Below the pieces are notes generated by a model. That model saw nothing but the letters and a program-made list of their open reading frames with translations. It was not told where the DNA came from and did not search any database. A DNA stretch of 42,686 nt from a virus (lineage: Duplodnaviria; Caudoviricetes), in the IMG/VR virus record IMGVR_UViG_3300043443_000105, positions 1-42,686 of that record. One strand, 5' to 3'. The position numbers were made by a program, and so were the translations under genes. The number at the start of each line of letters is the position of its first letter. Within the stretch, counting starts at the first letter, position 1. Positions 1-35,299 of this stretch are shown here, in pieces.

Positions 1-366
1 TGTAATACCAGCCATGAGACGACCCATTAAGTTCTTTTCTTCGTCTTCGTCTTCCTCAAGATCTAATTCGCCACCATCAGCAAATGCAACAATGCCACCA
101 CCTGCATAGCCTTCTTCGGGTAGATTGGATTGAAGTTTCTCTAAACCAGACATAACGTCTGCTTCTTCCATAACTTGACGAGCAATCGGAGGCTGGGCTT
201 GAGTCTGAGCTACCATTGCTTTAGCAGCTTGGTCAGCTCTCATTTTTTCTTGGATAAGCGGAACGCCTACATAGGCTGGGATTGTTCCATTCTTAACGGC
301 TTGGTTTAATTGCGGAATAGATAACTTCTCGGCATCCGCCATCCGACTCATTAAGCTACCAATCAT
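1..366 (-). CDS. putative internal virion/ejection protein (runs off the left edge of the window)
   Basis: Hand-translated open frame from ATG at 366 (MIGSLMSRMADAEKLSIPQL...GYAGGGIVAFADGGELDLEEDEDEE...). It follows the gp7-like gene in a P22-type ejection gene order. Confidence 0.6.
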   Translation of the reverse strand, partial: MIGSLMSRMADAEKLSIPQLNQAVKNGTIPAYVGVPLIQEKMRADQAAKAMVAQTQAQPPIARQVMEEADVMSGLEKLQSNLPEEGYAGGGIVAFADGGELDLEEDEDEEKNLMGRLMAGIT

Positions 367-367
367 A

Positions 368-1552
368 TTAACCTGCCTTACTCATAACATTGTAGAGACC
401 TAGCTCAGCCAAACCATCAGAAGCTTTGACCTTACCGCCCTTGTTAAATATTCCTGCTGCACGTCCTAACCCATACGCACCCACACCAGCCGTACCTAAA
501 CCAGCAATCTGTGAAACAGCGCTTGGAGCTGCCTGATACTGTTGGGTTGTAGCTTGTTGAAGTGGAAGACCTCGCAACAAACTGCTCATCATGGACAACT
601 GCATCTGTGGATGTTGTTGTTGCAAAGCATAATTCTGAATAGCTTGATTGACTCGTTGCTGCTCAAGGGCTTGTTGCTGCGCACCAGCTTGAGTTTGTAG
701 TCCAATAATGCCTTGCTGTGCCTGTAATTGTGCGCCACCAATATCAGCTAAAGCTTTACCAGCACTCGTTAATTGACCAGTGCCTTGCAATGCTGTGCCA
801 TAGCCTTGAAGACCTAAATTAGCCCCAAACTGCTGAGCTTGCTGCCCAGCTTCAAATGCCTTTTGTGTGCCTTGAGCTTGGATTTGTCCCAGTTGGGTTT
901 GAAGATTACGGCGGGCTTCAGCCGCTTCAATGGCTTGACGGCTACCACCAAATGCACCTTGACGAGAAGCTTGTGCCTGCATGCCAGGTAACGTCTTCAT
1001 ATAATCTCGAACGGCTTCTTGCTTTTGAACGTCAACCGCATTTTGCATATAGGGTGACATAAACGCTTGTTGAGCAAATGGGTTTGTAGCCATCCCGTAA
1101 TAACCCTGCCCAATTCCTGCAGCTTGTTGAGCTATATTTGCAGCACCCATACCGCCAGCACCAGCGTACATAGATCCAATCCCATATTGCCCAGGAACCT
1201 GCATTCCAGCAACTTGTCTAAAAGCTTGCTCTTGCATTGGAGAAAACCCAGCCACTGCGGCTTGAGCTTGTTGTTGTGCAGTATTAGTAATATTTCCCGC
1301 TGCATCTACCGTTGCACCATAAGGCACATAAGGTTGGAACCCTACAATATTGCCGGAATCGTCATACTTATAAGCCTGCTTTTGTGCAGCGCCCAACATG
1401 GTTTCTACATAAGGCTTGGCGTATTCTGGGAGATTAGTTTGATAGGAAGTAGATTGGGTAGGCTGACTGCCACCACCGCCTGAGCCACCACCAAAAGGAG
1501 TACGTCTTCCTTCCCAGGTCCAACCACTGTGTTTTGATCTTAATATGCTCAT
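368..1552 (-). CDS. DNA ejection (pilot) protein, P22 gp7-like
   Basis: 394 aa, rich in Q/A/G. A 20-aa basic leader precedes GGGSGGGGS, and there is a C-terminal Gly-rich hydrophobic segment. Lies directly after the GNAT-like gene, as in P22 gp14-gp7. Confidence 0.65.
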   Translation of the reverse strand: MSILRSKHSGWTWEGRRTPFGGGSGGGGSQPTQSTSYQTNLPEYAKPYVETMLGAAQKQAYKYDDSGNIVGFQPYVPYGATVDAAGNITNTAQQQAQAAVAGFSPMQEQAFRQVAGMQVPGQYGIGSMYAGAGGMGAANIAQQAAGIGQGYYGMATNPFAQQAFMSPYMQNAVDVQKQEAVRDYMKTLPGMQAQASRQGAFGGSRQAIEAAEARRNLQTQLGQIQAQGTQKAFEAGQQAQQFGANLGLQGYGTALQGTGQLTSAGKALADIGGAQLQAQQGIIGLQTQAGAQQQALEQQRVNQAIQNYALQQQHPQMQLSMMSSLLRGLPLQQATTQQYQAAPSAVSQIAGLGTAGVGAYGLGRAAGIFNKGGKVKASDGLAELGLYNVMSKAG

Positions 1553-1980
1553 AGTTTTACTTCCACTAAAGTAGTGCGTTCTTCAAACCCATACCGCTTC
1601 CACAATCTGGCTATAGCAGGACGAGCCATTCCTTGAATCTTTGTTGCTCCAGCATGTCTTAATATGTTGCTCATTTGTGCAAATGTATCCTGATTAGATA
1701 TTAATTTTCCACCAATAAGCGTTATAAAAGCTACTCTATTCTTAGGGTAATTAGCAAACGATACAGTTGCAGCACCATGTATTTTATTCTCTTCGTCAGT
1801 GGCTACTAACAACGTCCACACCCCAGAAGTCAAAAATCCTTGTACATGTGATATATCGTAATTATCACTCCACTGCGGAACAGGGTCTCCCTTTTCTAAA
1901 GCTTCCTTTAAAAACTCTTCAACAAAAGTCCAAACTTGTGCAACATAATCCGTTCCAACCGGTTGAATCTTTAAATTCAT
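1549..1980 (-). CDS. GNAT-fold acyltransferase-like virion assembly protein (P22 gp14 / T7 gp13-like)
   Basis: 143 aa with a GNAT-like end (ARPAIARLWKRYGFEE), located just upstream of the ejection genes. Confidence 0.6.
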   Translation of the reverse strand: MNLKIQPVGTDYVAQVWTFVEEFLKEALEKGDPVPQWSDNYDISHVQGFLTSGVWTLLVATDEENKIHGAATVSFANYPKNRVAFITLIGGKLISNQDTFAQMSNILRHAGATKIQGMARPAIARLWKRYGFEERTTLVEVKL

Positions 1981-3185
1981 GCAGGCACAAACCTATTAGG
2001 GTTAATCTGCTTACCTTGCTTTTTAGTACCAGTACGAGCCTTACGAACCTTATCCATCATCGAATATAACCGTTTAGCACCAGCATCAGTAGAGCCGTTA
2101 CCGAGATGAGAAACCACATCCGCAGGAACCACAAATTCCCCATCAGCCAAGCGGGCAGGCTGTTTACCAGCGATAACGCCAGGAATAGAGTCAGACATAC
2201 CATCACCGGGACCTTTAAGCATTCTGCCGCCATCGGAGTAGCTTCCTAATGAAGAAATGCCGCCACTAGCGTATTTAGCCCGTTTCATAGCTGCATACAT
2301 GTCTTGTAGGGCATTACCTCGCCCATAGATTTCGTCGTATTCTTTAAGCCCATAACCTTGAGCCTTAGCAGATTCAAGTATCTCAGCAATACCACCACCA
2401 GCCATTAGCATGGGGTTAGACCGCTCATAGCCAGGGGTGTCCATAACCATTTCAGAACTTACTGGACGCTGGATTGGGCTAGCATACTGGGTTTTATCAA
2501 TCATACCTTGGGGGTACAAGCCACCTTGGGGGTTCATTGCTGTATTAGCCATAGACATACGCTCTACAGGACCACCAGCTTGATACGCTTTCATAATACC
2601 GCCCTCGGCAGCATAGGATTTATACCCCGGTTGATACACACCTTCAGGAGCATAGGTAGGCTCAGACCGTCTAAATTTAGAAGCGTCAAAACTACTTACG
2701 TATTCTTCTTTACCAGGAACTCCAAAGCCTTTTCGCTCGTTATCCATCAAACCTGAAAGAGCAGCTCCACCACCAATAAGACCTAGTTGGGTATTACTTA
2801 AAGGTGAGAAACCAAGTACATTTGGTGAAATCGGCTTAATCCCTTCAAAAGCTTGACTAAAAGATTGCCCGTATTGATTAGCAGCTTCTAGAGGGATTGC
2901 GCCTGAAGAAACACCCTGACTTACAGCTTGTGGGCTCATTGTGCTAATACTAGCTAAACTAGGGTCTATTGCGGCATTTAAAGAGCTTGTACCAGCTATG
3001 GAGCCAGCTTCAGTTGCTCCAGCCAAAGCCGTTGGGTCGAATCCAGGGGCAGCAAAAGCACCCCCAATAGCACCCGTAGCTGCACCCATCATAGCGCCTT
3101 TTAAAGGATCGCCACCTGTAAGAGCAGAAGAGCCACCGCCAACAGCAGCTCCAATTAACATTGCCTCGCCTACACCGGTTCCCAT
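1977..3185 (-). CDS. internal virion protein with C-terminal tape-measure-type 'GG..GPGDGMSDSIP..GEFVV' domain and multiple [YM]xxGG motifs
   Basis: Start moved to ATG 3185 because of a GAGG RBS. Gly/Ala-rich hydrophobic N-terminus; C-terminal YSDGGRMLKGPGDGMSDSIPGVIAGKQPARLADGEFVVPA. Confidence 0.55.
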   Translation of the reverse strand: MGTGVGEAMLIGAAVGGGSSALTGGDPLKGAMMGAATGAIGGAFAAPGFDPTALAGATEAGSIAGTSSLNAAIDPSLASISTMSPQAVSQGVSSGAIPLEAANQYGQSFSQAFEGIKPISPNVLGFSPLSNTQLGLIGGGAALSGLMDNERKGFGVPGKEEYVSSFDASKFRRSEPTYAPEGVYQPGYKSYAAEGGIMKAYQAGGPVERMSMANTAMNPQGGLYPQGMIDKTQYASPIQRPVSSEMVMDTPGYERSNPMLMAGGGIAEILESAKAQGYGLKEYDEIYGRGNALQDMYAAMKRAKYASGGISSLGSYSDGGRMLKGPGDGMSDSIPGVIAGKQPARLADGEFVVPADVVSHLGNGSTDAGAKRLYSMMDKVRKARTGTKKQGKQINPNRFVPA

Positions 3186-3222
3186 AAGATATACCTCGCC
3201 TAATTTAAACAGTACTTTATCA

Positions 3223-4092
3223 TTAATATAGCGCCGAAACAAACGTTACCGTCAAGATTAATGACGGGGAAATAGGGTGAACTGGGCTTGTGCCAGCGGG
3301 GTAAGTTGCCAATACGGTGTTACCAGAATCAGAATGCCAGTAAAGCTCAAAATAATCACCAGCAGCAAAAGAGTCTACATAGTTCCAAGCAGTAATACCA
3401 GCTCCTGGACTAGTTCCGTGTTTAGCATTTACTTGCTGAACACCAGCGCTATAAGGTACATCTACCCCATTTTTTCTAAACCAAACAGTTACGTTATCTT
3501 CTGAAGTTGTGTAGTTTAAAAGCTGAGCGCTAAACTGAATATCGTATACACCAGCGCTATTAAAATAAACCTTTGAGTCTGGCGTGGTGCAAGTAATGCC
3601 ATTTGAAATTGTAACTGTGTCTATTATCATAGCTGCCGCAGTTCCTACCGTTGTTCCCGCTGCCTCGGTAATTGCTACGCCTGCTGTATGGGCTACGTTA
3701 GTTGTGCTTTTAACACCACGAGTTATGCCTGTAAATGTCGTGCTGGTTTTGCCTGTGTATTGAATAAGCTCACTTCCAATTAAAAGAAATCCAGACGATT
3801 GAAAATTCGCCGTAGAAGTAACTTGAATTGGTGTGGTAGATACGTTGGTCATATTTGCCGTAAGCGTTGTATTACCGTTTTGGTAGGCAGAAAAATACGG
3901 AAACTGTAGAAGCCCACCACCATTAGGTGATAGCAAGGATGCCAGCCCGTTATCAATCTGGTTAAAGTACAACCGCAAGGCATTTAAAAGCTGATCTTGG
4001 TATAGCTGGCGGTACTCTACGGGCGCAATCGGTAAGTTAGGCGCCTTTGGCGGTCTAAGATCTAAGGTCTTAATCTGGGGGTTAACTGCCAT
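3223..4092 (-). CDS. tail needle/plug-like protein with C-terminal C1q/TNF-like knob
   Basis: N-terminal helical segment, an inserted beta domain, and a C1q-like end (AGVYDIQFSAQL...WFRKNG...GDYFELYW). Follows the nozzle gene, like P22 gp26. Confidence 0.5.
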   Translation of the reverse strand: MAVNPQIKTLDLRPPKAPNLPIAPVEYRQLYQDQLLNALRLYFNQIDNGLASLLSPNGGGLLQFPYFSAYQNGNTTLTANMTNVSTTPIQVTSTANFQSSGFLLIGSELIQYTGKTSTTFTGITRGVKSTTNVAHTAGVAITEAAGTTVGTAAAMIIDTVTISNGITCTTPDSKVYFNSAGVYDIQFSAQLLNYTTSEDNVTVWFRKNGVDVPYSAGVQQVNAKHGTSPGAGITAWNYVDSFAAGDYFELYWHSDSGNTVLATYPAGTSPVHPISPSLILTVTFVSALY

Positions 4093-6296
4093 TACCTACG
4101 TCCGTCGTTGCGAATATCAATCCGTGGGCTACCTAACTGCCATGCCACACCTAACGAGTCAGACTCAATCCTAAAGGCAAGCTGGCGCCCTCTTAGGCGG
4201 GTATAGACCTGTCCAGTAAACTCTTGGACGTTATAGACCGGGGCAGTAGAAAAGTTATCCCCACTAATTACTTCTGGGTTATCTGCCGTACCATAAGGCG
4301 CTCCAGAGTTTTGACGGGGTTTAACCCTCATCGTGACGTATGGGTTGTTGACGTTAGAGCCGTTAAAGTTAATATCAGGCAGGATACGCCAGACAAAGCC
4401 AAAGTTATGCCCATCTCCAATATCAAAGTCAGAAGACTGTATATAAGCATTAATTGGCACGGGGGATGTGCCTGATACGTCATCTACCGCAGACTCATGG
4501 AACAGCATTCTATTGTTGTAGTCAGCAGCCATTGGATACTGACGTAAGCCAGAGTCTAGCCAAGCCGTGCGACCCATTGTGCCGTAGTACCAAGTGCGCT
4601 CTAAGTAGTTGTAAATGATGTACTTATTTATGACATTGCTTCCTTGTGAGCAGTAAAACCACCATACTTCGTTATAGCTTTCGTTACCCCCACAGAATAC
4701 TTGGAAGGCTTGTTCTTTATTAATATCCTCAAAGGTGTACTGCCAGAGCGAACAAGGTAGGGTCTCAACACGACCTGAATACATGTAAAACTTATCAACC
4801 CCCATCCAATACGTTACGTTATTAACCGTAATCATAGCGTTTGGCGACATAATTGAAATGTTGTCCATAAGGATCTGGAACCCCCAAACATAAGGAGGTC
4901 CTAGGTATTGCATGGAATAAATAGCAGCATCTGTCCATACCAAAATCTCTTGGCGGGTAGCACGAGCGCCCATAATAAATGAGCCGTTAGACAGCCTAAA
5001 TTCACCTGATTGATTTGTTACTGCTGGCACCCATTCATAGGGGTTTTCTTGGTCAGACCAACGCACCAGCATTGGGTCAAAGGTTGTAGCTGCTGTTGTT
5101 GGATCATATGGGTTAGCGCCCATGCAAATAATAAAACGTTGGATTGCTGAAGCTAAAACTTGAAAAGTAGCGGTTGGAACCCTTGTACCATCATATCCAG
5201 CAGCGGTAGACTGAGTAGAAAGAAGCTGTGATCTTACAGTTAAACCACCAGCTATGTTACTAGGATAAGTGCTTCCGGCTGGAATCCAATAGTAAACTGC
5301 GCCACCACGAGGAGCTATAAATAGCTGCTGCCCATAGTTATCATTAGTCCAAAGCCGTAACTGCTGACCAATGCCTGATGTAAATGCTTCGCCCCAACCA
5401 TGAGTGCCCGATTCGGTATAGGCAATAACGTTACCGCCGCCAGTTGTTGTAGAGGTGGCATTAGCCTGAACTGTGATGGTATATGCGTTGGCATTAGCGA
5501 CTGTGGGGTAAAACAATGTATTTAGAAGAACAGCTGAAACACCACCCGTTGCCGTAGCATTAGCAAAAATAACTGCCTGTCCATTAGACAAACCATGGGC
5601 TGTCTGAGTTACTACAACAGAATTACTGCCGTTAGTTGTGGCAAAAGGGTTAGTTAAGTTAGTTGTTACCCCTGTAACAGGCCAAGGACCAGCGCCCCAT
5701 CCAGTACCTAAAGTGTATGTATTTAGACCAATAGGTTGTTGATAAGAGGCTATAACTGTATTGCCGCCCCCCGTAGCGTTAGCGTTTGCTGTAGTTGATA
5801 CTGTTATTCTATAAGCTACTGTATTAACTGTAGACGCCACTACATATTCTTGATTAAGAATAGTATTTGTTATGTTGGTTCCCGTTACGGTATTAGCACC
5901 CGAAAAGGTTACATAATCGCCAATGCTTGGGCTGTATTGTCCATCTATTACGGTTACTAAATTTGACCCGCTAGTAACTACAAAACAATTATCTAACGCT
6001 GGGCTTGAAAAGTACACAACGGGAGTAACGTCGTTATAAGTGCCACCCTGCTCAATGTAGTACTTAATGTTTGTACCAACACCTAAATAGTTAGAACCTG
6101 CTAACGAAACCCAATTCCATAATGCCCTTGCTAACCCCAAGAACTGAGCATTAGCCATGCGGCTCCAACCACCAATTTTTTCAGGAAAGCCTGAACGGAA
6201 ACGCACTTTGTCGGCATCGTACCAACCACCTTCGTTAGAGTAATCTGTGCCTTCTCGGTTAAGACCTGGGCGGAACTGTAATTTTTGTAATGGCAT
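4092..6296 (-). CDS. tail nozzle / tail tubular protein B (P22 gp10-like)
   Basis: 734 aa with beta-propeller-like motifs (VRWSDQEN, ILVWTD, NEVWWFYCS, YNYLERTWYYG). Size and position fit. Confidence 0.7.
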   Translation of the reverse strand: MPLQKLQFRPGLNREGTDYSNEGGWYDADKVRFRSGFPEKIGGWSRMANAQFLGLARALWNWVSLAGSNYLGVGTNIKYYIEQGGTYNDVTPVVYFSSPALDNCFVVTSGSNLVTVIDGQYSPSIGDYVTFSGANTVTGTNITNTILNQEYVVASTVNTVAYRITVSTTANANATGGGNTVIASYQQPIGLNTYTLGTGWGAGPWPVTGVTTNLTNPFATTNGSNSVVVTQTAHGLSNGQAVIFANATATGGVSAVLLNTLFYPTVANANAYTITVQANATSTTTGGGNVIAYTESGTHGWGEAFTSGIGQQLRLWTNDNYGQQLFIAPRGGAVYYWIPAGSTYPSNIAGGLTVRSQLLSTQSTAAGYDGTRVPTATFQVLASAIQRFIICMGANPYDPTTAATTFDPMLVRWSDQENPYEWVPAVTNQSGEFRLSNGSFIMGARATRQEILVWTDAAIYSMQYLGPPYVWGFQILMDNISIMSPNAMITVNNVTYWMGVDKFYMYSGRVETLPCSLWQYTFEDINKEQAFQVFCGGNESYNEVWWFYCSQGSNVINKYIIYNYLERTWYYGTMGRTAWLDSGLRQYPMAADYNNRMLFHESAVDDVSGTSPVPINAYIQSSDFDIGDGHNFGFVWRILPDINFNGSNVNNPYVTMRVKPRQNSGAPYGTADNPEVISGDNFSTAPVYNVQEFTGQVYTRLRGRQLAFRIESDSLGVAWQLGSPRIDIRNDGRR

Positions 6297-6307
6297 ACGG
6301 GTTTACC

Positions 6308-7969: not shown

Positions 7970-7987
7970 ATCTCACTGTTCTTTGCC

Positions 7988-8197
7988 TCAGAGTGTTGAC
8001 CCACCAAATGACATATTGGCTACCACAATAGCTACGTGTTGCTCTGGATCTTCAAGTGAATCTCCGCAGTCGTTGCACTTTTTAGCAGCAAGCTCGTCTT
8101 CATCTACATCACGACCACAGTTAGGGCAATAAATTTCAATGGTATGGCGTGGCTTAAACTCACCGTCACTTAACTCGTCTTGAATGGTCTTAATCAT
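7988..8197 (-). CDS. small zinc-ribbon protein
   Basis: CPNC...CNDC; 69 aa. Confidence 0.6.
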   Translation of the reverse strand: MIKTIQDELSDGEFKPRHTIEIYCPNCGRDVDEDELAAKKCNDCGDSLEDPEQHVAIVVANMSFGGSTL

Positions 8198-8757
8198 GCT
8201 AACTCCGTTTCTTTAAACTCATATTCACACCAATATTCTTTAGGGATATATGCACCAAACATGTACATGATTCTAGGTGTTTTGCCTTTGGCTGTTGTTA
8301 CAAAATGCGGTAGTTCTGAAGCCATATAACAATGTAAATCACCCGCTTCTATATCAATTTTCTTACCCTCAACATAAAGTTCTGCCCCATCTTCATTAGT
8401 TTGGGTCAATATATTGCACCGATAAGCAGGGAGTCCTTCAGTGCTTTTGGGATCTTTATGAATAGGAACATTACCATTTTGATAAGTAATAGACACCACA
8501 ACGCCATCTGAACCATGGTCGTAAATTAATGGGAACTTATCTACACCAACAAACTCACGAACTTTTTTTGACACGTCCAATACTTCTTGTGTATATGTTT
8601 TGTTTTCCATATAAAGACGAGTGGTTAAACGGTTGTCAATAAAAGTACCGTGACTTAAGCCAAAACCAAACCAATTATTGGTATTAGCTAAAGCTATATT
8701 ACTAAGCATCTGGCATTCGTCATTAGATAAAAAGTTTTTATACACTTTTATGTTCAT
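8194..8757 (-). CDS. 2OG-Fe(II) oxygenase (prolyl 4-hydroxylase-like)
   Basis: NFLSNDEC N-terminal motif, HKD (HxD), distal H (LPHFV) and a 2OG-binding R. Confidence 0.75.
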   Translation of the reverse strand: MNIKVYKNFLSNDECQMLSNIALANTNNWFGFGLSHGTFIDNRLTTRLYMENKTYTQEVLDVSKKVREFVGVDKFPLIYDHGSDGVVVSITYQNGNVPIHKDPKSTEGLPAYRCNILTQTNEDGAELYVEGKKIDIEAGDLHCYMASELPHFVTTAKGKTPRIMYMFGAYIPKEYWCEYEFKETELA

Positions 8758-10225: not shown

Positions 10226-10234
10226 AATTTATCC

Positions 10235-10876
10235 TTATTTAAACGGGGTTCCAGTTATCCATGCAACTAAACTATAACGAGTTCCTTTTGTAACTGGACG
10301 AACTTCGTGTAATACATAACTTGGAAAACAAACCAATTTACCTTGTTCTTTAGCCATAATAGTTTCTTCTCCTGTATTAAGAACAAGTTCACCACCTTCA
10401 TAATCATCAGGATCAGATAGTTGAATTGTTAAAGATAGTTTACGAACAGGACCATTGAGCCATTTATCTATATGCGCTCCGTAAAACCCTGATGGCGCTT
10501 CGTATTTAGTAAATTGAAAACCTTCTGCAAAACCAAACAACTCAAATTTAAAAAATTGATTGTTAAGAGAAGTTATTACATCTGTAACTTTTTGATAGGC
10601 CCATTGCATATTATCTGCTGAATACAACCAACTTACCTGGCTATCACGAGCATCTAAAATAATTTTATTATTTATTACGGTAGCTTTCTCTAGAATTTTT
10701 TGTTCACCTAATTTAATAATTTCTTTACACTCCTGCGGAGTAAAAACACCATTCCAATACGCCCAATTATCAACATGGTCTGCATTAAAAAACCATGCAG
10801 CATTAGCCGTTTGTGGTTGTAGTTGTAGTTGTGGTTTTTGTACAGGAAGATTAATTATTTTTTTAGCGTTTTTCAT
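10235..10876 (-). CDS. PKHD-type 2OG-Fe(II) oxygenase
   Basis: FQFTKY..FYGAHID, RKLSLTIQLSDPDDYEGGEL and FPSYVLHEVRPVTKGTRYSLVAW. Start set to the ATG overlapping the cupin end. Confidence 0.9.
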   Translation of the reverse strand: MKNAKKIINLPVQKPQLQLQPQTANAAWFFNADHVDNWAYWNGVFTPQECKEIIKLGEQKILEKATVINNKIILDARDSQVSWLYSADNMQWAYQKVTDVITSLNNQFFKFELFGFAEGFQFTKYEAPSGFYGAHIDKWLNGPVRKLSLTIQLSDPDDYEGGELVLNTGEETIMAKEQGKLVCFPSYVLHEVRPVTKGTRYSLVAWITGTPFK

Positions 10877-11261
10877 CAAGATACTCTTTTGGTGTTGATT
10901 TAATCCCATTAAATCCTTCTTCAATAAATCTGTAGTCCATACCTCCTTCAGGTATATCCGCCGGATCAATAATGTCCTCTACTCTTTCACCATCACGGAT
11001 AGCATGAATACAATAACAAACCGTGTCGTCCTCAAGTGCTTCAAGTTCGTGTTTAAATCCTGCGGAAATAAAAATAATAGTAGGTGCAATAAATTCAGTT
11101 GCTTTACCATTAACCGTTACTTTTACTTTACCTTTACCAAGCAAGGTCTGGTGATCAAATATATGCGTATGCCCTTCATTTATGTCACCTGCTTTTACAA
11201 AGTGCATTTGTTTAACCCATGTATTTGCTACAAGACTAATTTTAGAAAGTGGGTATGCCAT
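10863..11261 (-). CDS. cupin-domain protein
   Basis: GHTHIFDHQTLLGKG...AGFKHELEALED (cupin metal-binding histidines). Confidence 0.75.
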   Translation of the reverse strand: MAYPLSKISLVANTWVKQMHFVKAGDINEGHTHIFDHQTLLGKGKVKVTVNGKATEFIAPTIIFISAGFKHELEALEDDTVCYCIHAIRDGERVEDIIDPADIPEGGMDYRFIEEGFNGIKSTPKEYLDEKR

Positions 11262-11263
11262 TT

Positions 11264-12055: not shown

Positions 12056-12064
12056 AATTTATCC

Positions 12065-12541: not shown

Positions 12542-14919
12542 TACTTGCCTTTCAGAGCATCTACTTCGGCCTTCAACTCCTTAATAGCCTCAATGAGCAA
12601 CGGAATAATTCGGTCGTATTTAACTGCTTTCATACCGTTTTCTCTAGTGCCAACTACTTCTGGAATCACTTTTTCAATCTCTTGGGCAATTACACCAACG
12701 TCGTGTTTACGAACAAAGTAACCGTCTTCTGGCTCATCCAAGTTATTCCAATCAAACTCAACACCACGAATTTGAAGGACTTTAGCAAGCGCATTTGCAA
12801 TTACTTGTACGTTGTCTTTTAAACGTTCGTCTGAAGAGTAGTATGCAGTAACGTTATTTGTTGCACGAATCTCACCAGTAGTGCCTGATGCCGCTGTACC
12901 AACACCCAAAGAAGAAATTTGAGTGCTACCTAAGCTACCAACAGAAGTAATGTTGGTTTGCGCAGCGGTACTTAATGTGCCAGCAACTGTAGTAAATGTA
13001 CCTACGTTTGCAGTAAACGAACCATCAGAATCACGAGCCACAATAGTAGAAGCTCCATTGGCAGAAGCCGCAGTAGTTCTAGCGTTAGCAACAGTGCCTG
13101 TAGTTACGTTTGATCCATTGATAGCAGATACGTTGGACCCATCACCAATAATAAACGAACCTGTTATTGCCCCAGCAGCAAACGCTCCACCTGCATCACG
13201 AAGCACAATAGTACTAGCACCGTTACTAGAAGAAGCAGTCGTTCTTGCATTATCGACAGTCCCTGAAGTTAGGTTGGACGCATTAATAGCAGATAGAGCT
13301 ACACCGTTACCTGAAATAGAATTAGCCGTAATATCGCCAGCACCAAAGCTACCAGATGAATCACGAAGAACAATCGTAGCTGCCCCGTTAGCAGAAGCCG
13401 CTGTGGTTCTAGAGTTACCAATAGTTCCAGACGATATATTGCTTGCGTTAATAGAGGTTATGGTTGTACCAGCACCAATAAAGTTTGCTGCGGTTACGTT
13501 GCCACCTTCAAAAGCACCATTAGCATCACGCAGTACCAAAGTCGAAGCGCTATTAGCCGTGTTGGCTGTAGTACGGGCGTTATCTAAAGTACCAGAGGTG
13601 ACGTTAGAGGCATTAATAGCTGTTAGGGCTACGCCGTTACCAGTAATGTTAGTGAAGTTTCCGCTGGTTGCATTAACCGTTGTAGCTGTAACTACGTTGG
13701 CAGCAAAAGAACCATTAGAGTCACGAGATACGATAGTAGAAGCGCCGTTAGAATCAGAAGCAGTGGTTCTTGCGTTGGCTAAAGTGCCAACAGTAATGTT
13801 AGACACGTTAATAGCAGAATTAGAAGCAGAAGTTAACTGCCCCTGTGGGTTTACCTCAATAACGGCTACGTTAGCTGAATCACCATATAAACCTGTAGAA
13901 ACAGTAGTATTCGATATGCTAAACGTTAGATTAGAAAGGTTAAGACCGGTACCTGCTGCATAGATCTGAGCAGAACTAATCTGCGCAAACGTAAGGTTGG
14001 TTGAACCAAAAGTAATTGTGCCTACGGTATTGAGAATATAAGTTTCACCAGCCCCCGTATTACCAGACTGAACGAAGAATGCATCACCCTGACCTAGCTT
14101 ATTTGGGTCCCCAACGCCATAAGTATCAGCATCGGTCGCACGAGTAAGCACCCAAGCAGCCCCAGGACCAGGGGCATCGGGCGCACCGGGATTAGTAACC
14201 GTATAAACACCGTTTTGAACAGCATTAGCTTGGTTATAAACCAAAACACGAGCTGTGTTAGATAGAGACACACCATCAATACTTAAAGCTACGTTTGCGC
14301 CGCTATTAGTCAGCGTAGCACCTACGCCGTTTCCGGCACCGCCTGGCTGATTATACGTAGCGGTTAGAGCTGTCGGTGTTTCAACAAGAACAGGAGCGTG
14401 ATATGTGATACCTGTTGAAAAAAGCCCATCAACATAAGTCTTATTGGTAATATCCGTGGCGTTTGCAGCGTTGGTGCTAATTGTTCCGTTTGTTAGCGTT
14501 ACAGTAGTAGCTGTTAAGTTTGTGGTGTTGACATTAGTGAATGCTACGGTGTTTGTGCCATTACCAAATACTTCTACCTTACCTGTGGCTTGATTTGTAT
14601 ATAGCGCTTGCTCGGCTGGTTGAGTAATAAATACCTCAAGCCCACTTACACCACTAGTAAAGTTAACCTTAGATCCTGTTGATGAGGAAAAAACCGTATC
14701 CCTACTTAGCGTAGCTGGAGACGTAAATGTACCAACGCCAACTTCCCACTCTGTATCAGATCCAGCAGTTAAGTTATGGATGGTGTAATAAACGGTAGAA
14801 CCAGTAGTTATGGCGGCATTAAACGTTTGATAGCCAGGAAATGCACCACCAAGCGTAAGACTGCCTGTGCCAGAGCTAGAGCTGGATTCTTTAACCCTAT
14901 CTTTCAGAATCAAAGCCAT
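12541..14919 (-). CDS. long tail fibre with C-terminal intramolecular chaperone (peptidase S74) domain
   Basis: MALILKDRVKES head-binding region, five ~55-aa repeats, and YSSDERLKDN...GVIAQEIEKVIPEVV...VKYDRIIPLLIEAIKEL. Confidence 0.88.
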   Translation of the reverse strand: MALILKDRVKESSSSSGTGSLTLGGAFPGYQTFNAAITTGSTVYYTIHNLTAGSDTEWEVGVGTFTSPATLSRDTVFSSSTGSKVNFTSGVSGLEVFITQPAEQALYTNQATGKVEVFGNGTNTVAFTNVNTTNLTATTVTLTNGTISTNAANATDITNKTYVDGLFSTGITYHAPVLVETPTALTATYNQPGGAGNGVGATLTNSGANVALSIDGVSLSNTARVLVYNQANAVQNGVYTVTNPGAPDAPGPGAAWVLTRATDADTYGVGDPNKLGQGDAFFVQSGNTGAGETYILNTVGTITFGSTNLTFAQISSAQIYAAGTGLNLSNLTFSISNTTVSTGLYGDSANVAVIEVNPQGQLTSASNSAINVSNITVGTLANARTTASDSNGASTIVSRDSNGSFAANVVTATTVNATSGNFTNITGNGVALTAINASNVTSGTLDNARTTANTANSASTLVLRDANGAFEGGNVTAANFIGAGTTITSINASNISSGTIGNSRTTAASANGAATIVLRDSSGSFGAGDITANSISGNGVALSAINASNLTSGTVDNARTTASSSNGASTIVLRDAGGAFAAGAITGSFIIGDGSNVSAINGSNVTTGTVANARTTAASANGASTIVARDSDGSFTANVGTFTTVAGTLSTAAQTNITSVGSLGSTQISSLGVGTAASGTTGEIRATNNVTAYYSSDERLKDNVQVIANALAKVLQIRGVEFDWNNLDEPEDGYFVRKHDVGVIAQEIEKVIPEVVGTRENGMKAVKYDRIIPLLIEAIKELKAEVDALKGK
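13005..13812 (-). repeat. five ~55-aa (about 165 bp) repeats in the tail fibre
   Basis: INxSNxxxGTxxNxRTTAxxxNxAxTxVxRDxxGxF repeated 5 times. Confidence 0.85.
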
Positions 14920-14932
14920 AAGGCTCTCCTAA

Positions 14933-15364
14933 TTACGAAGCGGTTAAACGAATAATTGCGTTACTTGCATCAGCAGTTGGGAAGTTAACAGCAAAAGTAC
15001 CATTAGTAGAGGTCTTATCGCCGCCAAAAGCTAGTACAGCAACAGCCGCATTTGCTAAGTTAGCGTTATAGATCAAAGCGCCATTCGCAGTAATGGTTGC
15101 ATTTGCCCAAGAAGTATTGGAGAACGAGATGTAAGCTACGTTTCCAGAGTTAGTTGGGGTTACGCTAACCGACAAAGTATTACCACCAGCAGAATAATTG
15201 CCAGTAGAAGCTACTTCATTAGTTGTTGAATAAGCAGTTGTGTTCTCGTTAATGGTAGCCGAGCTGGTATACAGGGCTAATTTAAACGTATTTGCTGAAA
15301 AATTGTGCTGACCATTCAAGAGTTGAACCTTGAACGATGTAGCCATTGCTTGAGTAATTGCCAT
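14933..15364 (-). CDS. virion structural protein (tail-associated)
   Basis: MAITQAMATSFKVQLLNG..FKLALYTS..GALIYN..FGGDKTST; AGGAG RBS. Confidence 0.65.
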   Translation of the reverse strand: MAITQAMATSFKVQLLNGQHNFSANTFKLALYTSSATINENTTAYSTTNEVASTGNYSAGGNTLSVSVTPTNSGNVAYISFSNTSWANATITANGALIYNANLANAAVAVLAFGGDKTSTNGTFAVNFPTADASNAIIRLTAS

Positions 15365-15380
15365 TTTTTGCTCCTAAAAA

Positions 15381-16289
15381 TTATCTTACGGGTCCAGGTA
15401 CAGGTAATCGTAATTGTCCATCACGATAAGCGCTACGTCTATCTTTACCATCACCCAAATCTTTGAGCAACGCTAAGGATTCTTGGTACTTCTGCTCGTA
15501 ATAGTTGACCATATCTTGCTCACCCTTTTGGAAGATTATAGCCTCACGTAACGAACCATACAACAAAACACTTTCAAAATTATCACCCAGCCAGGAAGTT
15601 CCGGCTGCGTTCTGAATATTATTAACGGGTACTGAAAACCCACTTCCCGTACCCCCGATTGTAGATACCGCAGCGCTTAGTGTGTTACCCACAAGATATA
15701 GATACCCTGGGTTTACTAAAGTAACCGTAGTTACCACTCCTCCAGATACAGTAATCGTAGCAGTCCCATTTGAACCATTACCACCCGTCAAAGGAACATT
15801 GGTGTATACACCGTTGGTATATCCCGAACCACCAACAATCGTACCAAAACCAGCTAATCCGCCTTGAACAATCGTGGTTGGGTAGTAGTAATAATGCAGC
15901 TCGGTGTTGTAATTGTCATCTGGGGTCGGCCCAATTATGTAGGTATAGGGGGCAAACTGGGCATAGTACCTAGGTAAACCTGTATCAGTAGTTGGATTTG
16001 GGTAGGACTGACGGATAAAGTTAACGTCTTTATCAATTAAATACTCGTAGCTACCGTCGCTATTAATAACAGCAAGGGAGAAAGACGCCAAATAATCGGT
16101 GGGAAGCGCTATATAGTAGTCTCCCTGAATAAAGTTACCAATAACATTTTTACGGATAGCAGGGATCTGAACGGCGTTGTACACCCGCTCTTCGCAAAGC
16201 TGGACAAAGTTAGGAATGTTGTAGACAAAGAGTTGCTCTGTCGACTCAGCGTAGCTTTGTATTGCCTCAGATAACTGCTGGTAGTTCAT
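15381..16289 (-). CDS. head-tail adaptor / tail tubular protein A-like, with inserted beta domain
   Basis: GLPRYYA..IGPTPD..ELHYYY..LLYGSLREA adaptor motifs; insertion GGSGYTNG...GSGFSV. Confidence 0.65.
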   Translation of the reverse strand: MNYQQLSEAIQSYAESTEQLFVYNIPNFVQLCEERVYNAVQIPAIRKNVIGNFIQGDYYIALPTDYLASFSLAVINSDGSYEYLIDKDVNFIRQSYPNPTTDTGLPRYYAQFAPYTYIIGPTPDDNYNTELHYYYYPTTIVQGGLAGFGTIVGGSGYTNGVYTNVPLTGGNGSNGTATITVSGGVVTTVTLVNPGYLYLVGNTLSAAVSTIGGTGSGFSVPVNNIQNAAGTSWLGDNFESVLLYGSLREAIIFQKGEQDMVNYYEQKYQESLALLKDLGDGKDRRSAYRDGQLRLPVPGPVR

Positions 16290-16555
16290 TAGCCCATTTT
16301 CCCGCTAATTTTGCGACCCTTGGTAGCAGCACCATAACCACGCATTTCACCAACACCGTACGGGTTTATTGGCTTGTAGTTACCTTTACTAACGCCACCA
16401 ACAGACATATTCATTGTGTCCATTACTTTGGCACCGGGAGTATAAGCACTGTCTGCCACGATGCTAGTAGCTTTACCGTCCATTGTGTGCGGTGCAGCAT
16501 AAACCTCAGCAGGTCCTACTTCTTTACCGCCTTTTTTCATAGAGAACTTAGCCAT
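16289..16555 (-). CDS. small basic protein (MKKGG and RGYGAATKG motifs)
   Basis: 88 aa; translationally coupled to its neighbours. Confidence 0.7.
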   Translation of the reverse strand: MAKFSMKKGGKEVGPAEVYAAPHTMDGKATSIVADSAYTPGAKVMDTMNMSVGGVSKGNYKPINPYGVGEMRGYGAATKGRKISGKMG

Positions 16556-16749
16556 TATCGACCTCTTCCTGATTTCTTCTGATTCATGATACGAGCCATA
16601 TTGCGACCCATAGTCTTCATGTTTTTGTTCATTGAGCTAGTGCTTTTCTTTGGACCCTTCTCAATACCTATTGATGGACCAGAGTCACCTAAGTTTTTAC
16701 CTTCGGTTTTGCCCTTTTTGGTAATACCATCTGCGCCTTTTTTGTACAT
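16555..16749 (-). CDS. small basic protein (ADGITKKGKTEG motif)
   Basis: 64 aa; AGGAG RBS. Confidence 0.65.
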   Translation of the reverse strand: MYKKGADGITKKGKTEGKNLGDSGPSIGIEKGPKKSTSSMNKNMKTMGRNMARIMNQKKSGRGR

Positions 16750-16759
16750 TTTTAACTCC

Positions 16760-17185
16760 TTAAGTTGTTGTTACTGATACTGTACCAAGAATTACTTGTT
16801 GTACCAAGTCATTTGGAGTTAAACCTGCATCAGGACCTCTACTACCCCCGACTGGGTTCCACCCCCACTGAAACACCCTACTACCTAACTCTGGACTACC
16901 AAATCCATCTGGACCAATGCCCGTCTGGTTAATTTGTAAACCACTTTGTCCTGATACTAAATAACTCACGTCTGGTCTTGGTTCCCGCACCGCCTGTGGA
17001 TCATTTACTGGGTACAAGCCTAGAGACAACTGAGGCTGATCTGGATCCCAACAAGACGGGCAAACCTTAACTTGATACGGTTTTGTCTTTAATATCTGTA
17101 TCTTTAACTCCGTAAGTTTATACCGTTGTGCACATCTGTCGCACTCCGCAATAGCATATTTACCTGAAGAAAACTTATTTGGCAT
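16760..17185 (-). CDS. conserved phage zinc-finger-like protein
   Basis: CDRC...CPSC followed by DPDQPQL...DPQAVREPRPD. Confidence 0.7.
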   Translation of the reverse strand: MPNKFSSGKYAIAECDRCAQRYKLTELKIQILKTKPYQVKVCPSCWDPDQPQLSLGLYPVNDPQAVREPRPDVSYLVSGQSGLQINQTGIGPDGFGSPELGSRVFQWGWNPVGGSRGPDAGLTPNDLVQQVILGTVSVTTT

Positions 17186-17191
17186 GGCATA

Positions 17192-18124
17192 TCATCTGTA
17201 ATAAAACATATTGCGTGGAACTATACGGATTGTGGCTGTTTCTCTGTCTTCGTCCGCAGCCAACTGCCATTGTTGTTCATAGTCAGATTTGAGCATCATT
17301 ATTCTATTTGGATCGACTCCAGGCATTTTGGTACTTAATTGATAAGCCAGACCAGCGGTCATACAGGGGATAAATCTAAATGGAATATCTTGGGTTCTGA
17401 TACCAGTGCCTGCGTCTTGGATTCTACGCATTCTGTAATACACAAATGTGTATTGGTCGCCAGGTGCATTAGGGGTGGGCCAGACGTTAACACATGGTAA
17501 ATTGTTGGTATATACGTTTGCAGCTGTTAAATGACTAGCCGCTGTAGTGCCATTCTGACCACGCCAAGCATTAATAATCTGGTTGCCTACGATGTTTTGA
17601 TAGCCAATGGTTTCGTTGTCAATATTAACAAAACCTTGAGTTGGGATATTAGCAGCATTAACTAAGGTAATAGTTGTATCAGTTGCGGTTATGGCGCCAT
17701 CTAAAACAGCTTGTGGGGTTGCTGCCACATTACCTGACTGTCTGTTAAACCAAACTTGAATTGGGCGCCCATTAGCGTTTTTATTGGGGATGGTAAGGTA
17801 AGTAGGTTCACTAATACGGCTAATATTAATGTCAATTTGGTTATTGCTCTGACCATTATTAGTACGCACCACGGTATCTAAAAGGTCAACTGTATCAACG
17901 GGAATAGGGTAAATAGCCTGCCCAGTATTCATTACAAACTGCCCTTGCTCTACAGTCCACAAGTTAATACCACGGTTAGCCCACTCAATCGTCAATAGGT
18001 TTAAAGACCGCCGTGCAGTACGAAAGTCATAACCGGAGCGAACCTCTAAACCACAACGTTCAAACGCCTCCTCAATGAGGTCGTTCATGTCTAAGTTGAA
18101 GTTATTTGTACCAGTAGTGGTCAT
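17192..18124 (-). CDS. head-tail connector / adaptor protein with inserted beta domain
   Basis: DLIEEAFERCG..ARRSLNLLTIEWANRGINLW..VWPTP..FRFIPCMTAGLAY. Confidence 0.65.
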   Translation of the reverse strand: MTTTGTNNFNLDMNDLIEEAFERCGLEVRSGYDFRTARRSLNLLTIEWANRGINLWTVEQGQFVMNTGQAIYPIPVDTVDLLDTVVRTNNGQSNNQIDINISRISEPTYLTIPNKNANGRPIQVWFNRQSGNVAATPQAVLDGAITATDTTITLVNAANIPTQGFVNIDNETIGYQNIVGNQIINAWRGQNGTTAASHLTAANVYTNNLPCVNVWPTPNAPGDQYTFVYYRMRRIQDAGTGIRTQDIPFRFIPCMTAGLAYQLSTKMPGVDPNRIMMLKSDYEQQWQLAADEDRETATIRIVPRNMFYYR

Positions 18125-18468
18125 ATCTTCCTAAACGGTTTTACTTTTGCTTTTACTTTTGCTGGCTGGGGCACGAACTGCTTTCCCTGTGCTTTGCCTG
18201 CTCGTTTTGCTCGTGTTGTTGCTGCGTACTCGGATGGACTCAATGACTGGATCGCCTTTTTGGGTAGGTATCTTTCGCCTGTTTCGGACGACTTCTTCCC
18301 TGACTTGGTTGTCCACTCTTGGTCGCCCCAAGCCTTTAAAGAACGTTGCGATGCGGCTAAACCACCCCCTACCATCTTCTTCTTTTTGCTGGCGCAATGA
18401 GCCTTCTCCGAGAACCCCTTTGGGCTGTCGCAGTTGATTGACTTTTTGCGTTTGTCGGACCATTTCAT
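18121..18468 (-). CDS. small basic conserved protein
   Basis: SLKAWGDQEWTTKSG..ERYLPKKA motif; overlaps its neighbours. Confidence 0.7.
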   Translation of the reverse strand: MKWSDKRKKSINCDSPKGFSEKAHCASKKKKMVGGGLAASQRSLKAWGDQEWTTKSGKKSSETGERYLPKKAIQSLSPSEYAATTRAKRAGKAQGKQFVPQPAKVKAKVKPFRKI

Positions 18469-18731
18469 TTTTTTAGCTTTGACAAAGTCTGTGCTAATCT
18501 CGCTCTTTGCCCCATCTTACCTGGCTTTTTAGCTGCCACAGCAAGTTTTTTAGCGGGGATCTTCTCACCTTTTTTAACACCCATAGATGCTCTTAAGGCG
18601 CCCGGTTTTTTAATTGCATCTTGGATCCAATTAACTTTGCCACCTTTTTTCATCTCAACGCCACGTCCTTTTAGGACGTCAGCACGGGTTACTTCACCAT
18701 CTTTATTTAGATCAGGAAACGATTTAGCCAC
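18465..18731 (-). CDS. small basic protein with EF-hand-like motif
   Basis: GTG start after GGAGG; DLNKDGEVTRAD, MKKGGKV and WIQDAIKKPGALR. Confidence 0.7.
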   Translation of the reverse strand: MAKSFPDLNKDGEVTRADVLKGRGVEMKKGGKVNWIQDAIKKPGALRASMGVKKGEKIPAKKLAVAAKKPGKMGQRARLAQTLSKLKK

Positions 18732-19011
18732 GATAACCTCCACCTTTTGCTTTGTATTTTTTAGCTAAGAGTTGTGCCTTCCTAGCCGACCATTGACCCG
18801 CCGCAGTGCCTTGCACAGCCGACGCTTTAATACTCTCAAATAAAGATTTGCGCATACTAGGCTTCGTATAGTTACCAGCCTGATTAACCTTAGAAGTTTT
18901 ACCCCCTTTGGAGTACATATCCACTGCATCGGGATTATCTTTACGATGAATAACTTTACCTTTAGGCATTTTAGAAGGGAGAATGGCGCCCATACCACGG
19001 CTGGCTCTCAT
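18724..19011 (-). CDS. small basic conserved protein
   Basis: NYTKPSMRK..GQWSARKAQLLAKKYKAKGGGY. Confidence 0.7.
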   Translation of the reverse strand: MRASRGMGAILPSKMPKGKVIHRKDNPDAVDMYSKGGKTSKVNQAGNYTKPSMRKSLFESIKASAVQGTAAGQWSARKAQLLAKKYKAKGGGYRG

Positions 19012-19310
19012 ACCATTTTTCCTTTGGTTTTACCTCGCATTGCGCAGCCGTCAGCTCGTTTAGAAGCTGAGGATACCTTGCCACCCTTTTTATACCCAGC
19101 ATACTCATATGCCTCGCCCTCACGGGCACGGGCAGGAACAGATTCACGCAAAGCACGGGCTGCTCTCATTTCGTCTCTAGCTGCTTTAGCCATGGTTGGC
19201 ATCATTTTAGAGAGAATATCTTTCTCCCCTTCAATACCTTGAACCATCATCTCACGAGACTTTTCAAGCTTCTCGCTCTCTTTAACTGTAGGTTTACGAT
19301 AATCTGGCAT
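19008..19310 (-). CDS. small basic protein with GG tag and RADGxAxRGKTKG tail
   Basis: YKKGGKVSSASKRADGCAMRGKTKGKMV. Confidence 0.7.
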   Translation of the reverse strand: MPDYRKPTVKESEKLEKSREMMVQGIEGEKDILSKMMPTMAKAARDEMRAARALRESVPARAREGEAYEYAGYKKGGKVSSASKRADGCAMRGKTKGKMV

Positions 19311-19702
19311 TACACAATCCTTCCTTTAGTCTTACCCCGCTGGGCTATGCCATCAGCACGGGATGATGCACTTACTTTACCGCCAGCTTTTAATTTAGGC
19401 TTTGGCATATTACTACCCATCATGCCTTTTTCAAGCTCAATTTTTGCCCCAGCTGCGCCACTAGGTTTAGGTAATCTACCCATATCTTGAAGTCTTTCGG
19501 TATAGGTACGTGGGCGCGTAGCTTCAGCATTTGTTTTTTGCTCTCCTGCTATTTTGCTTATTTCATCCCTAGCCTTTTGAGCCTTCTCAGCTTTCTCTAG
19601 AATTTCGTCAAACTTTCCAGGACCGTGCTTAGGCTTAGCTGGATACTTCTCCTGCCCGTCACCGCCAGTCTTTTTAGAAGGGTCTACAGGTTCAATTGGC
19701 AT
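19310..19702 (-). CDS. small basic protein with GG tag and RADGxAxRGKTKG tail
   Basis: LKAGGKVSASSRADGIAQRGKTKGRIV. Confidence 0.7.
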   Translation of the reverse strand: MPIEPVDPSKKTGGDGQEKYPAKPKHGPGKFDEILEKAEKAQKARDEISKIAGEQKTNAEATRPRTYTERLQDMGRLPKPSGAAGAKIELEKGMMGSNMPKPKLKAGGKVSASSRADGIAQRGKTKGRIV

Positions 19703-19897
19703 TTAGCAAGCCTTACCGCCGCCCATCATCTTAATCATTGTGCCCTTGGTTTTACCCTTAGTAGCACAACCGTCTGCACGGGCAGACGCAGTACCGCCTT
19801 TAGCCATCTTGTGCATACGCTTCTCATGGCTTTTAACAGCCTCGCCAGCGACTTTTTTCATCATTGGCATGTCTTTTGCAATATCTGAATGTTTCAT
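19703..19897 (-). CDS. small basic protein with GG tag and RADGxAxKGKTKG tail
   Basis: MAKGGTASARADGCATKGKTKG. Confidence 0.7.
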   Translation of the reverse strand: MKHSDIAKDMPMMKKVAGEAVKSHEKRMHKMAKGGTASARADGCATKGKTKGTMIKMMGGGKAC

Positions 19898-19898
19898 A

Positions 19899-20084
19899 TT
19901 AGCAAGCCTTTCCGCTTTTCTTTTTAGCCATACCGCCGCTCATCATTTTCTTTGCAGCTTTTTTAGCCACGCCACCTTTTTTCATACCAGCTTCAGCCAT
20001 TTCATGCTTAATCATGGACTTAGGAGCGCCCTTTTTCTTCATAAAGCCAATTTCTTTTTTAACCATCATTTTGGACTCTTTCAT
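19899..20084 (-). CDS. small Lys/Met-rich protein with GG tags
   Basis: MKKGGVA and MMSGGMA; ends in GKAC like its downstream neighbour. Confidence 0.65.
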   Translation of the reverse strand: MKESKMMVKKEIGFMKKKGAPKSMIKHEMAEAGMKKGGVAKKAAKKMMSGGMAKKKSGKAC

Positions 20085-20332
20085 GCTACTAACCCTTTCT
20101 GAATAAGTTGGTCAATTTTTGCTTCAAGTTTGTTAAAGCGTTGGTCAATATGGACCATAATTTTGTCAATTTCTGCTTGAGTGACGTTATCACGAGCCAC
20201 CTCCTCACGAGTTCTGTTTAATAAAATATTAAGACGAGCTAGTTCCGCAGATTTTTCTCTTGCCCAAAGACCCACGATTACCCCCGCTAAAGATAAAACT
20301 GCGTTCCATAACATTAAAAACTCAGGACTCAT
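20081..20332 (-). CDS. small membrane-anchored coiled-coil protein
   Basis: N-terminal TM segment and C-terminal coiled coil. Confidence 0.65.
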   Translation of the reverse strand: MSPEFLMLWNAVLSLAGVIVGLWAREKSAELARLNILLNRTREEVARDNVTQAEIDKIMVHIDQRFNKLEAKIDQLIQKGLVA

Positions 20333-20649
20333 ACCATCTTCCCTTTAGTTTTGCCACGGACTTCGCAGCCACCACCACGAACAGATCCACCTTCTTTGCA
20401 GTTCCAAGCTCGTAAAGACTTATTGATGCGTGAATCTGGGTCGTTAGCGGTTTTAGCGCTGGTTAGCTTACGCTTCATGCCTTTCATGCGGGCACAGAAC
20501 GAATCACGTCTAGATCCACCTTCTGGCTGAGGACGCTTTAGCCCAGGTTTACCAGGATTGGCAGCGTTATAGGAGGCACGCCCCTTAGCGTTCAAGCCGC
20601 CTTCGGGGTTTTTGCCTTCTTTGCGTTGCCAGGCAGGGGTCTTAGCCAT
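20329..20649 (-). CDS. basic conserved phage protein (DUF6321-like)
   Basis: GGLNAKGRASYN..RRDSFCARMKG..DPDSRINKSLRAWNC with an RGKTKG tail. Family recalled, not searched. Confidence 0.6.
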   Translation of the reverse strand: MAKTPAWQRKEGKNPEGGLNAKGRASYNAANPGKPGLKRPQPEGGSRRDSFCARMKGMKRKLTSAKTANDPDSRINKSLRAWNCKEGGSVRGGGCEVRGKTKGKMV

Positions 20650-34135: not shown

Positions 34136-34137
34136 TC

Positions 34138-34153
34138 CGTCTAACGTTAGACA
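34138..34153. promoter_or_regulatory. palindrome copy 5
   Basis: CGTCTAACGTTAGACA, intergenic. Confidence 0.85.
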
Positions 34154-34177
34154 CAACTTTTTAACAGGAGAAACAAA

Positions 34178-35290: not shown

Positions 35291-35299
35291 GGGGGAGAT

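Follow-up and report, generated by a model that had tools for sequence, protein, structure and literature searches.

A hydrophobic-small-x-Gly-Gly tag at module seams and its companion GEFV module in a freshwater phage: candidate cut sites and a candidate processor

Here we describe a short peptide tag and a protein module encoded in a 42,686 bp stretch of viral DNA (IMG/VR record IMGVR_UViG_3300043443_000105; hereafter the window, meaning the whole stretch), a partial genome of a freshwater phage. The tag—a hydrophobic-small-x-Gly-Gly peptide—is a real, enriched motif, and tags mark the seams between swappable modules of small basic proteins and of proteins that are likely injected. The GEFV module ends an ejection-type protein and carries a near-invariant Glu. 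We favour, with somewhat less than even confidence, a reading in which polyproteins are cut at the tags and the module does the processing. A first-pass annotation of the same DNA had pointed to a shared tag and to a tagging or processing system; its observation is partly confirmed, and its interpretation partly supported.

That annotation listed about 12 late proteins sharing [F/Y/M]-x-x-G-G, and every listed peptide is present at its named gene, on the minus strand; the portal and scaffold carry no tag, as it had said. The 12 named proteins (1,769 amino acids) hold 17 loose [FYM]xxGG matches in 10 of the 12; LKAGG, CKEGG, and AAEGG deviate from the F/Y/M position. Shuffling within each protein gave a mean of 3.5 loose matches, with none of 2000 shuffles reaching as many; the strict form [FYM]xxGGx[VIA] occurs 11 times, in eight proteins, against a shuffle mean of 0.72 and again none of 2000. 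The 32 other late proteins, leaving out the Gly-rich protein 9185, have six loose matches (4.9 expected) and one strict match (1.2 expected)—FRQGGFI in the terminase—while the 18 early proteins have one loose match and no strict one. F, Y, or M stands at the tag position in 17 of 35 GG runs of the named proteins, versus 10 of 84 elsewhere. The shuffles and this GG-run control reject Gly/Lys composition, the artefact the first-pass annotation had itself raised, as the source of the tags. Individual peptides vary in strength: MKKGG of the 16289 protein is weak, being kept in one of five homologues, and CKEGG, though off-pattern, lies on a module seam, as does MVGGG. Because the named proteins were chosen for carrying the motif, the cross-genome comparison given below is the fairer test.

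The tagged proteins other than the module protein, and a second shared peptide, are listed here by window position:

1..366, minus strand: third ejection-type protein, truncated at the window end; tags YAGGG (94-108) and FADGG (70-84)
368..1552, minus strand: DNA ejection protein (phrog_4287, E 2.7e-8); C-terminal tag FNKGG (434-448)
16289..16555, minus strand: small protein; MKKGG (16526-16540), of weak conservation, with a C-tail variant (16310-16342)
18121..18468, minus strand: small basic fusion of leader, MVGGG (18361-18375), and module; phrog_14910 covers residues 37-114
18465..18743, minus strand: small basic fusion, its seam marked by MKKGG (18639-18653); phrog_20603 covers residues 38-92
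18724..19011, minus strand: small basic fusion of leader, YSKGG (18901-18915), and module; phrog_17747 covers residues 37-94
19008..19310, minus strand: variable module, YKKGG (19080-19094), and conserved C-tail RADG...GKTKG (19020-19058)
19310..19702, minus strand: variable module, LKAGG (19379-19393), and C-tail (19322-19360)
19703..19897, minus strand: small basic protein; MAKGG (19793-19807), C-tail (19742-19780), and MMGGG (19715-19729)
19899..20084, minus strand: small basic protein; MKKGG (19971-19985) and MMSGG (19932-19946)
20329..20649, minus strand: DUF6321 protein (PF19846, residues 12-82), CKEGG (20386-20400), and C-tail variant (20341-20376)
19020-19058, 19322-19360, 19742-19780, 20341-20376, 16310-16342, and 16699-16737, minus strand: RADG...GKTKG peptide and its variants

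In the small basic proteins, PHROG and Pfam matches start just past a tag or stop just short of one, and relatives break and rejoin these proteins at the same points. The part of the 18121 protein past MVGGG is a separate gene of 80-86 amino acids in relatives (G001, G006, G027); the part of the 18724 protein past YSKGG is an untagged, separate 62-amino-acid gene in the module-negative G027, and its leader is fused with a different module in G009. Each half of the 18465 protein is joined to other partners in relatives. In G001 a tag junction takes the place of the start of the 19703 gene, and the 19703 and 19899 genes are internal tag-joined modules of longer proteins across G001, G002, G005, and G006 (19899 in the last three). 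Most of the DUF6321 relatives listed end at the Cys of CKEGG; others carry an N-terminal tag. Since tag-joined modules are separate genes elsewhere, and the reverse, the tag behaves like a gene boundary.

Indels and swaps that map to tags would also be expected if the tag were just a flexible hinge or recombination seam, spread as modules shuffle and read by nothing; codons are also similar in several tags, ATGAAAAAAGG being one example. We consider this explanation very unlikely: synonymous positions and the choice of F, Y, or M differ among tags while the pattern is kept, and the tags persist across distant clades and fall to chance level where the module is absent.

The second shared C-terminal peptide, RADG-x-x-x-[RK]GKTKG, was missed by the first-pass annotation. 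It follows the tag in the 19008, 19310, and 19703 proteins and has variants in 20329, 16289, and 16555. Peptides of this type close many small proteins with unrelated N-terminal parts, in the window and in relatives, and may be the true handle for packaging or DNA binding.

The module itself lies in the gene at 1977-3185, downstream of a nozzle-like gene (4092-6296, phrog_3287) and upstream of the phrog_4287 DNA ejection gene. Its features, with an example of the dedicated family discussed below, are:

1977..3185, minus strand: first ejection-type protein, 402 amino acids; variable tag-separated N-terminal modules and a conserved C-terminal GEFV module
1980..2240, minus strand: GEFV module, residues 316-402 (the last 87); own tag YSDGG, GPGDGMSD loop, LADGEFV hairpin, and two helices
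2136..2138, minus strand: Glu350, candidate catalytic or new-N-terminus-binding residue, from conservation
2226..2240, minus strand: YSDGG, the module's own tag
2259..2612, minus strand: four more tags, YASGG (2259-2273), MAGGG (2391-2405), YQAGG (2571-2585), and AAEGG (2598-2612)
L469:8103-8684 (MW202675) and P0267-P0386: tandem-module family examples

We take the ATG at 3185 as the start; the open reading frame (ORF) list extends to a TTG at 3242. The module had been described as a stand-alone domain, which does not hold for the window, where it forms the last part of a longer protein; it is relatives that encode it as a dedicated tandem protein of about 190 amino acids. Among the best 120 matches, whose lengths run from 222 to 640 amino acids, the module is 88-99% identical. 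In an alignment of 54 podovirus-only module sequences (profile A1), Glu350 is invariant (54/54 rows) and neither Cys nor His is conserved. A broad set keeps the Glu in 40 of 44 rows; the four Ser rows are first copies of tandem proteins, whose second copies keep Glu.

The tandem family, found from MW202675, consists of proteins of 164-225 amino acids with two modules each (3,178 matches of 3,864 candidates, a count that includes single-module proteins). The first copy has Ser for Glu and the second has Glu; in MW202545 the order is Asp, then Glu. In all 120 of 120 proteins a x-[ASKT]-x-GG peptide lies no more than 16 residues before the Glu-bearing second core, and in the five examples read the long inserts are tag-bounded and end in a second tag. 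The family hints that the module may work as a pair. His50, Asp63, and His64 of the first copy are invariant, alongside the Ser that replaces Glu, and could form a separate metal or catalytic site. The N-terminal 44 residues of the family match phrog_2423, a separate family of 52 positions.

Judged by profile matches, the GEFV module is a true homologue of the distal module of siphophage tape measures. Examples of that module are gp16 of PDB 8zdo (residues 966-1007 and 1415-1451), JBD30 gp46 (PDB 8rk3), and lambda gpH (about 733-785, inside TIGR01541). Profile A1 matched the 8zdo tape measure twice (E 6e-14) and the 8rk3 tape measure weakly (E 0.042); module matches reached 10,663 cluster representatives at E<=1e-3, and the module matched no Pfam or NCBIfam family. 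Against PHROG tape-measure families the window module scored E 1.7e-3, and its homologues in phages RW and DSL-LC04 scored down to 5e-8 and 3e-10. The DSL-LC04 module matched 536 phage records, mostly annotated tape measures among the 60 matches listed, and it matched phrog_24 (E 2.7e-4), so the link to lambda is transitive. The direct link to lambda gpH is marginal (E 0.017 among 28 proteins, with 1 of 100 shuffles as good). The resemblance to siphophage tape measures drawn by the first-pass annotation stands on 8zdo, while its chosen example, lambda gpH, is reached by a transitive and weak route. Tags flank the module on both sides in lambda gpH, in the Constance and SBP9 tape measures, and in phage RW. 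The 1977-3185 protein as a whole does not qualify as a tape measure: it has 402 amino acids and no TIGR01541 match, and it is encoded among SU10-type adaptor, nozzle-like, and ejection genes.

Tag and module also occur together across genomes, a check the first-pass annotation had proposed. We compared 31 genomes or large genome parts sharing the capsid family (RW, MinM2, HTVC023P, QDWS535, G024, G027, and G029 are partial), dropping G010, which had no capsid gene in the 60 kb taken; tags were counted on capsid-strand ORFs, with the module protein and terminase left out. The 20 module-positive genomes, most of them found via the module itself, carry 108 tags against 21.6 expected, and the 10 module-negative genomes carry 6 against 7.9 expected, counted with a fixed pattern chosen after tags had been seen in module-positive phages. 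The two groups differ at p 1.3e-5 (Mann-Whitney), a statistic that ignores kinship. The fixed pattern replaced a score-matrix scan, which we set aside as noisy: it caught Gly-rich fibres and reported four sites in CRP-901 against 1.4 expected. Coverage of the CRP-901 clade and of G029 takes in the nozzle and ejection region, yet the module is absent there; PK1 serves poorly as a control, neither a portal nor a nozzle homologue having been found in it. Downstream of the module gene, large proteins carry a tag at 52 of 54 informative loci in the window clade, and at 41/67, 34/43, and 39/51 in three further clades. A GGI[NA]D peptide, which could be a remnant tag, is retained by module-negative CRP-type phages in a protein after the portal (L179:43167-44747, L466:43299-44774, and G026 34733).

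Two published boundaries fall in the same register as the tag. Phage T5 pb2 is cleaved after R1127, as mapped by mass spectrometry, and matures into pb2* and pb2C (Linares et al. 2023, PMC10038345); the available text of that paper names no protease. The sequence there is R↓AEGG, the arrow marking the boundary, followed by GE-H-G-T-E (a GE-x-G-x-E stretch), and a divergent T5-like relative has YAAGG ahead of this stretch. In crAss001, residues 425-552 of gp45 (cargo protein C1) lie on the portal wing, bound as a 12-mer, and residues 214-245 lie in the tail (PMC10172136). The resolved gp45 domain starts N↓AFGG at residue 425, a register shared by 8 of 842 positions, and the tail segment falls between tags at 206 and 260, two of eight tag-like peptides in the protein. 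Relatives of gp45 fall into 23 length classes, of which 13 lack the block from tag 260 to tag 329 or 370 and two lack the block starting at tag 559; the remaining classes differ at their ends or not at all, bar one 305-324 difference. The T5 and crAss001 boundaries match the tag in register only. The first-pass annotation had likened the system to adenovirus and African swine fever virus (ASFV), with cleavage at or after GG; the one mapped cut, in T5, lies before A-x-G-G, so that analogy is not supported.

Three observations lead us to favour cutting before the small residue: tags behave as seams, indels run from tag to tag, and two published boundaries share the register. We favour the module as tag reader because of the tag-module co-occurrence and the conserved Glu. 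In outline, the module protein would be gathered into the prohead, perhaps at the portal; the module, probably paired, would take its own tag first and then the tags of other proteins, cleaving just before the small residue, with Glu350 acting in catalysis or binding the new N-terminus. Cutting would free short basic peptides and ejection-channel pieces, in place of the missing prohead protease. We infer that the small basic proteins are packaged and that the module is anchored at the portal, pairs, and acts in catalysis. The tag is likely a cutting site, and the module may be a self-cutting enzyme. A bolder version—one that we regard as doubtful—would make the GEFV module an undescribed minimal self-cleaving Glu peptidase that cuts x↓A-x-G-G, the missing tape-measure enzyme of T5 and lambda, reused at the portal by short-tailed phages and crassviruses on tag-joined cargo polyproteins. 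If so, any protein fused via a tag would be packaged, released, and injected.

The tags may instead be uncut docking peptides, with a portal-anchored module, like crAss001 C1, binding them and drawing tagged proteins into the prohead. This main rival is possible, if on the doubtful side: co-occurrence fits it equally well, a C1 domain starting AFGG does bind the portal wing as a 12-mer (PMC10172136), and some proteins have a single tag near one end (368-1552 and 16289). However, docking leaves unexplained why tags lie between every module, why a stop-start boundary can replace a tag, and why T5 pb2 is cut, and homology between the module and C1 fell short in profile comparisons.

Another enzyme, of the host or an unrecognised one of the phage, could cut the tags, leaving the module as an anchor or hook that starts at the cut site. 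The module is small (a core of about 50 residues) and its weak models matched no known protease fold, and the window genome is partial; a 1973 title cited in PMC10038345 concerns a host role in tail-protein cleavage, and the JBD30 authors describe the homologous residues 1022-1066 as two helices plus a hairpin, predicted to form a hook (PMC11445458). We rate this explanation as rather unlikely, since a host enzyme would not account for chance-level tags in module-negative phages, nor would it explain the near-invariant Glu and the dedicated tandem proteins. A scan of 55 ORFs turned up no prohead protease family, in line with the first-pass annotation; the genome is partial, but the head module is covered. 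Two protease-labelled PHROG matches cover the capsid part of fused families only, not a serine prohead protease.

Several observations weigh against the processing reading. The tag-module trait needs as few as two changes on the capsid tree (27 rows; G013, G016, and MinM2 skipped), so the independent evidence is thin; phage RW has the module and one tag outside it (0.6 expected), two of seven module-negative CRP-type loci carry FAEGGGL, and the looser score matrix separated module-positive from module-negative groups less well. The residue before the T5 cut is Arg, not F/Y/M, and the T5 authors see the downstream motif as a muralytic metallopeptidase (PMC10038345). The crAss001 authors take gp45 as one continuous chain, the string 'cleav' being absent from the main text as available (PMC10172136), and the gp45 model may start at 425 merely because order starts there. 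With the core profile, neither T5 pb2 nor gp45 yielded a domain (100 of 100 shuffles were as good); hhalign of the module against T5 and crAss segments gave 0.05-0.2% with shallow alignments; and the nearest named ESM Atlas cluster, crAss_CARG1, scored only 0.84 and 0.77. Folding gave no support either, as both AlphaFold2 models leave the tag unplaced, at a predicted local distance difference test (pLDDT) score below 50.

The AlphaFold2 models are themselves weak. The single module has pLDDT 65 overall (below 50 for residues 1-25 and 28-33) with helices predicted; a tandem relative, modelled from 81 protein-search sequences, shows two hairpin-helix-helix units (pLDDT 73, predicted template modelling score 0.57). 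A PDB fold search with both models gave no match at E<=0.001, the best Z scores being 2.6 and 5.8, of which the latter is an unrelated N-terminal helix pair; 7QOG (crAss001) was not among the matches listed for these weak models. A viral structure library returned four matches at E<=0.001, all uncharacterised phage proteins. Bridging searches to T5, lambda, and crAss C1 returned near-identical sequences, and profile comparisons failed. The available texts of PMC11101478, PMC10713586, PMC1796659, PMC6235969, and PMC13243795 give neither the lambda gpH cut site nor a gp45 band size.

The window is a partial genome of an HTVC023P-type phage by capsid similarity: its capsid protein is 64.5% identical to that of Pelagibacter phage HTVC023P and 74.2% to that of phage MinM2, and near-complete module-positive relatives have 53-67 kb. 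The minus strand encodes terminase, portal, GroES-like, scaffold, capsid, SU10-type adaptor, fibre, lysis, nozzle-like, and ejection genes, and from this gene content the phage is probably short-tailed. Twelve GTDB matches are mostly short contigs in metagenome bins and were not used as host evidence. The GroES-like gene (24616-25026, phrog_3188) adjoins the scaffold and is annotated too in most relatives with the head region sampled. The early region (33224-36588) holds a gene pair of AAA ATPase and DUF2201 metallopeptidase-VWA, and a 2OG-Fe(II) oxygenase and related genes lie amid tail-fibre genes (8194-8757 and 10235-11261), as they do in HTVC023P. Between the module protein and the following ejection gene is a small gene (1549-1980) whose slot in CRP-901 holds a GNAT acetyltransferase; it might act on new N-termini. 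Among relatives, a ketoacyl-ACP synthase gene lies directly upstream of the ejection genes in MW202545 (L467:14938-15882), and large multi-tag proteins adjoin the portal gene: L443:29016-37678 (MW202675), G028 51894, and L467:38651-41323 (MW202545). Those of MW202675 are annotated as peptidase M15, type I restriction enzyme, and yenB; we see these large proteins as candidate injected cargo polyproteins.

The tape measures of lambda and T5 have been known for decades to be cleaved; the texts consulted name no enzyme for this, and the processing reading puts forward a candidate enzyme, residue, and cut register. If true, it would account for the presence of crAss001 gp45 in the head as well as the tail, and it would allow the mature cargo peptides of very widespread aquatic phages to be predicted. 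It would also offer a short, portable tag with which to load proteins into phage particles. We found no paper describing the tag or the module as a system, in a literature search that covered subscription journals thinly.

Several known systems share parts of this arrangement. Siphophage tape measures have in common with the window the distal GG...G-x-G-x-x-D...GE[FY]V module with flanking tags; in the window, by contrast, the module forms the C-terminal end of an ejection-type protein, in what is probably a short-tailed phage, and other proteins are tagged too. Di-Gly proteases such as adenain, ASFV pS273R, and JAB have a Cys- or Zn-protease domain and cut at or after GG, unlike the module, which has no Pfam or NCBIfam match and no conserved Cys or His. 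T4 gp21 is a prohead protease with a capsid targeting sequence, and prohead-protease systems use a serine protease that cuts after Glu. In such maturation, as in that by SPN3US gp245 (PMC10052503), one short motif on many packaged proteins is cut during head assembly, much like the arrangement we propose; the window differs from T4 gp21, SPN3US gp245, and HK97 gp4 in having no such family in its 55 ORFs. T5 pb2 resembles the window in its cut at x↓A-x-G-G ahead of a Glu-bearing stretch, as far as the available text goes (PMC10038345), and differs in having one site in one protein and no module homology found by the core profile. For crAss001 gp45 (PDB 7QOG; PF25725; Bayfield et al. 2023, PMC10172136) the likenesses are a gene placed after the muzzle or stabilisation gene and tag-to-tag indels; the differences are that its authors, in the text available, propose an uncut chain and that profile comparisons on shallow alignments found no homology between its domain and GEFV. 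The tag-module arrangement would work like protease maturation of head cargo, yet it falls outside the membership of those systems.

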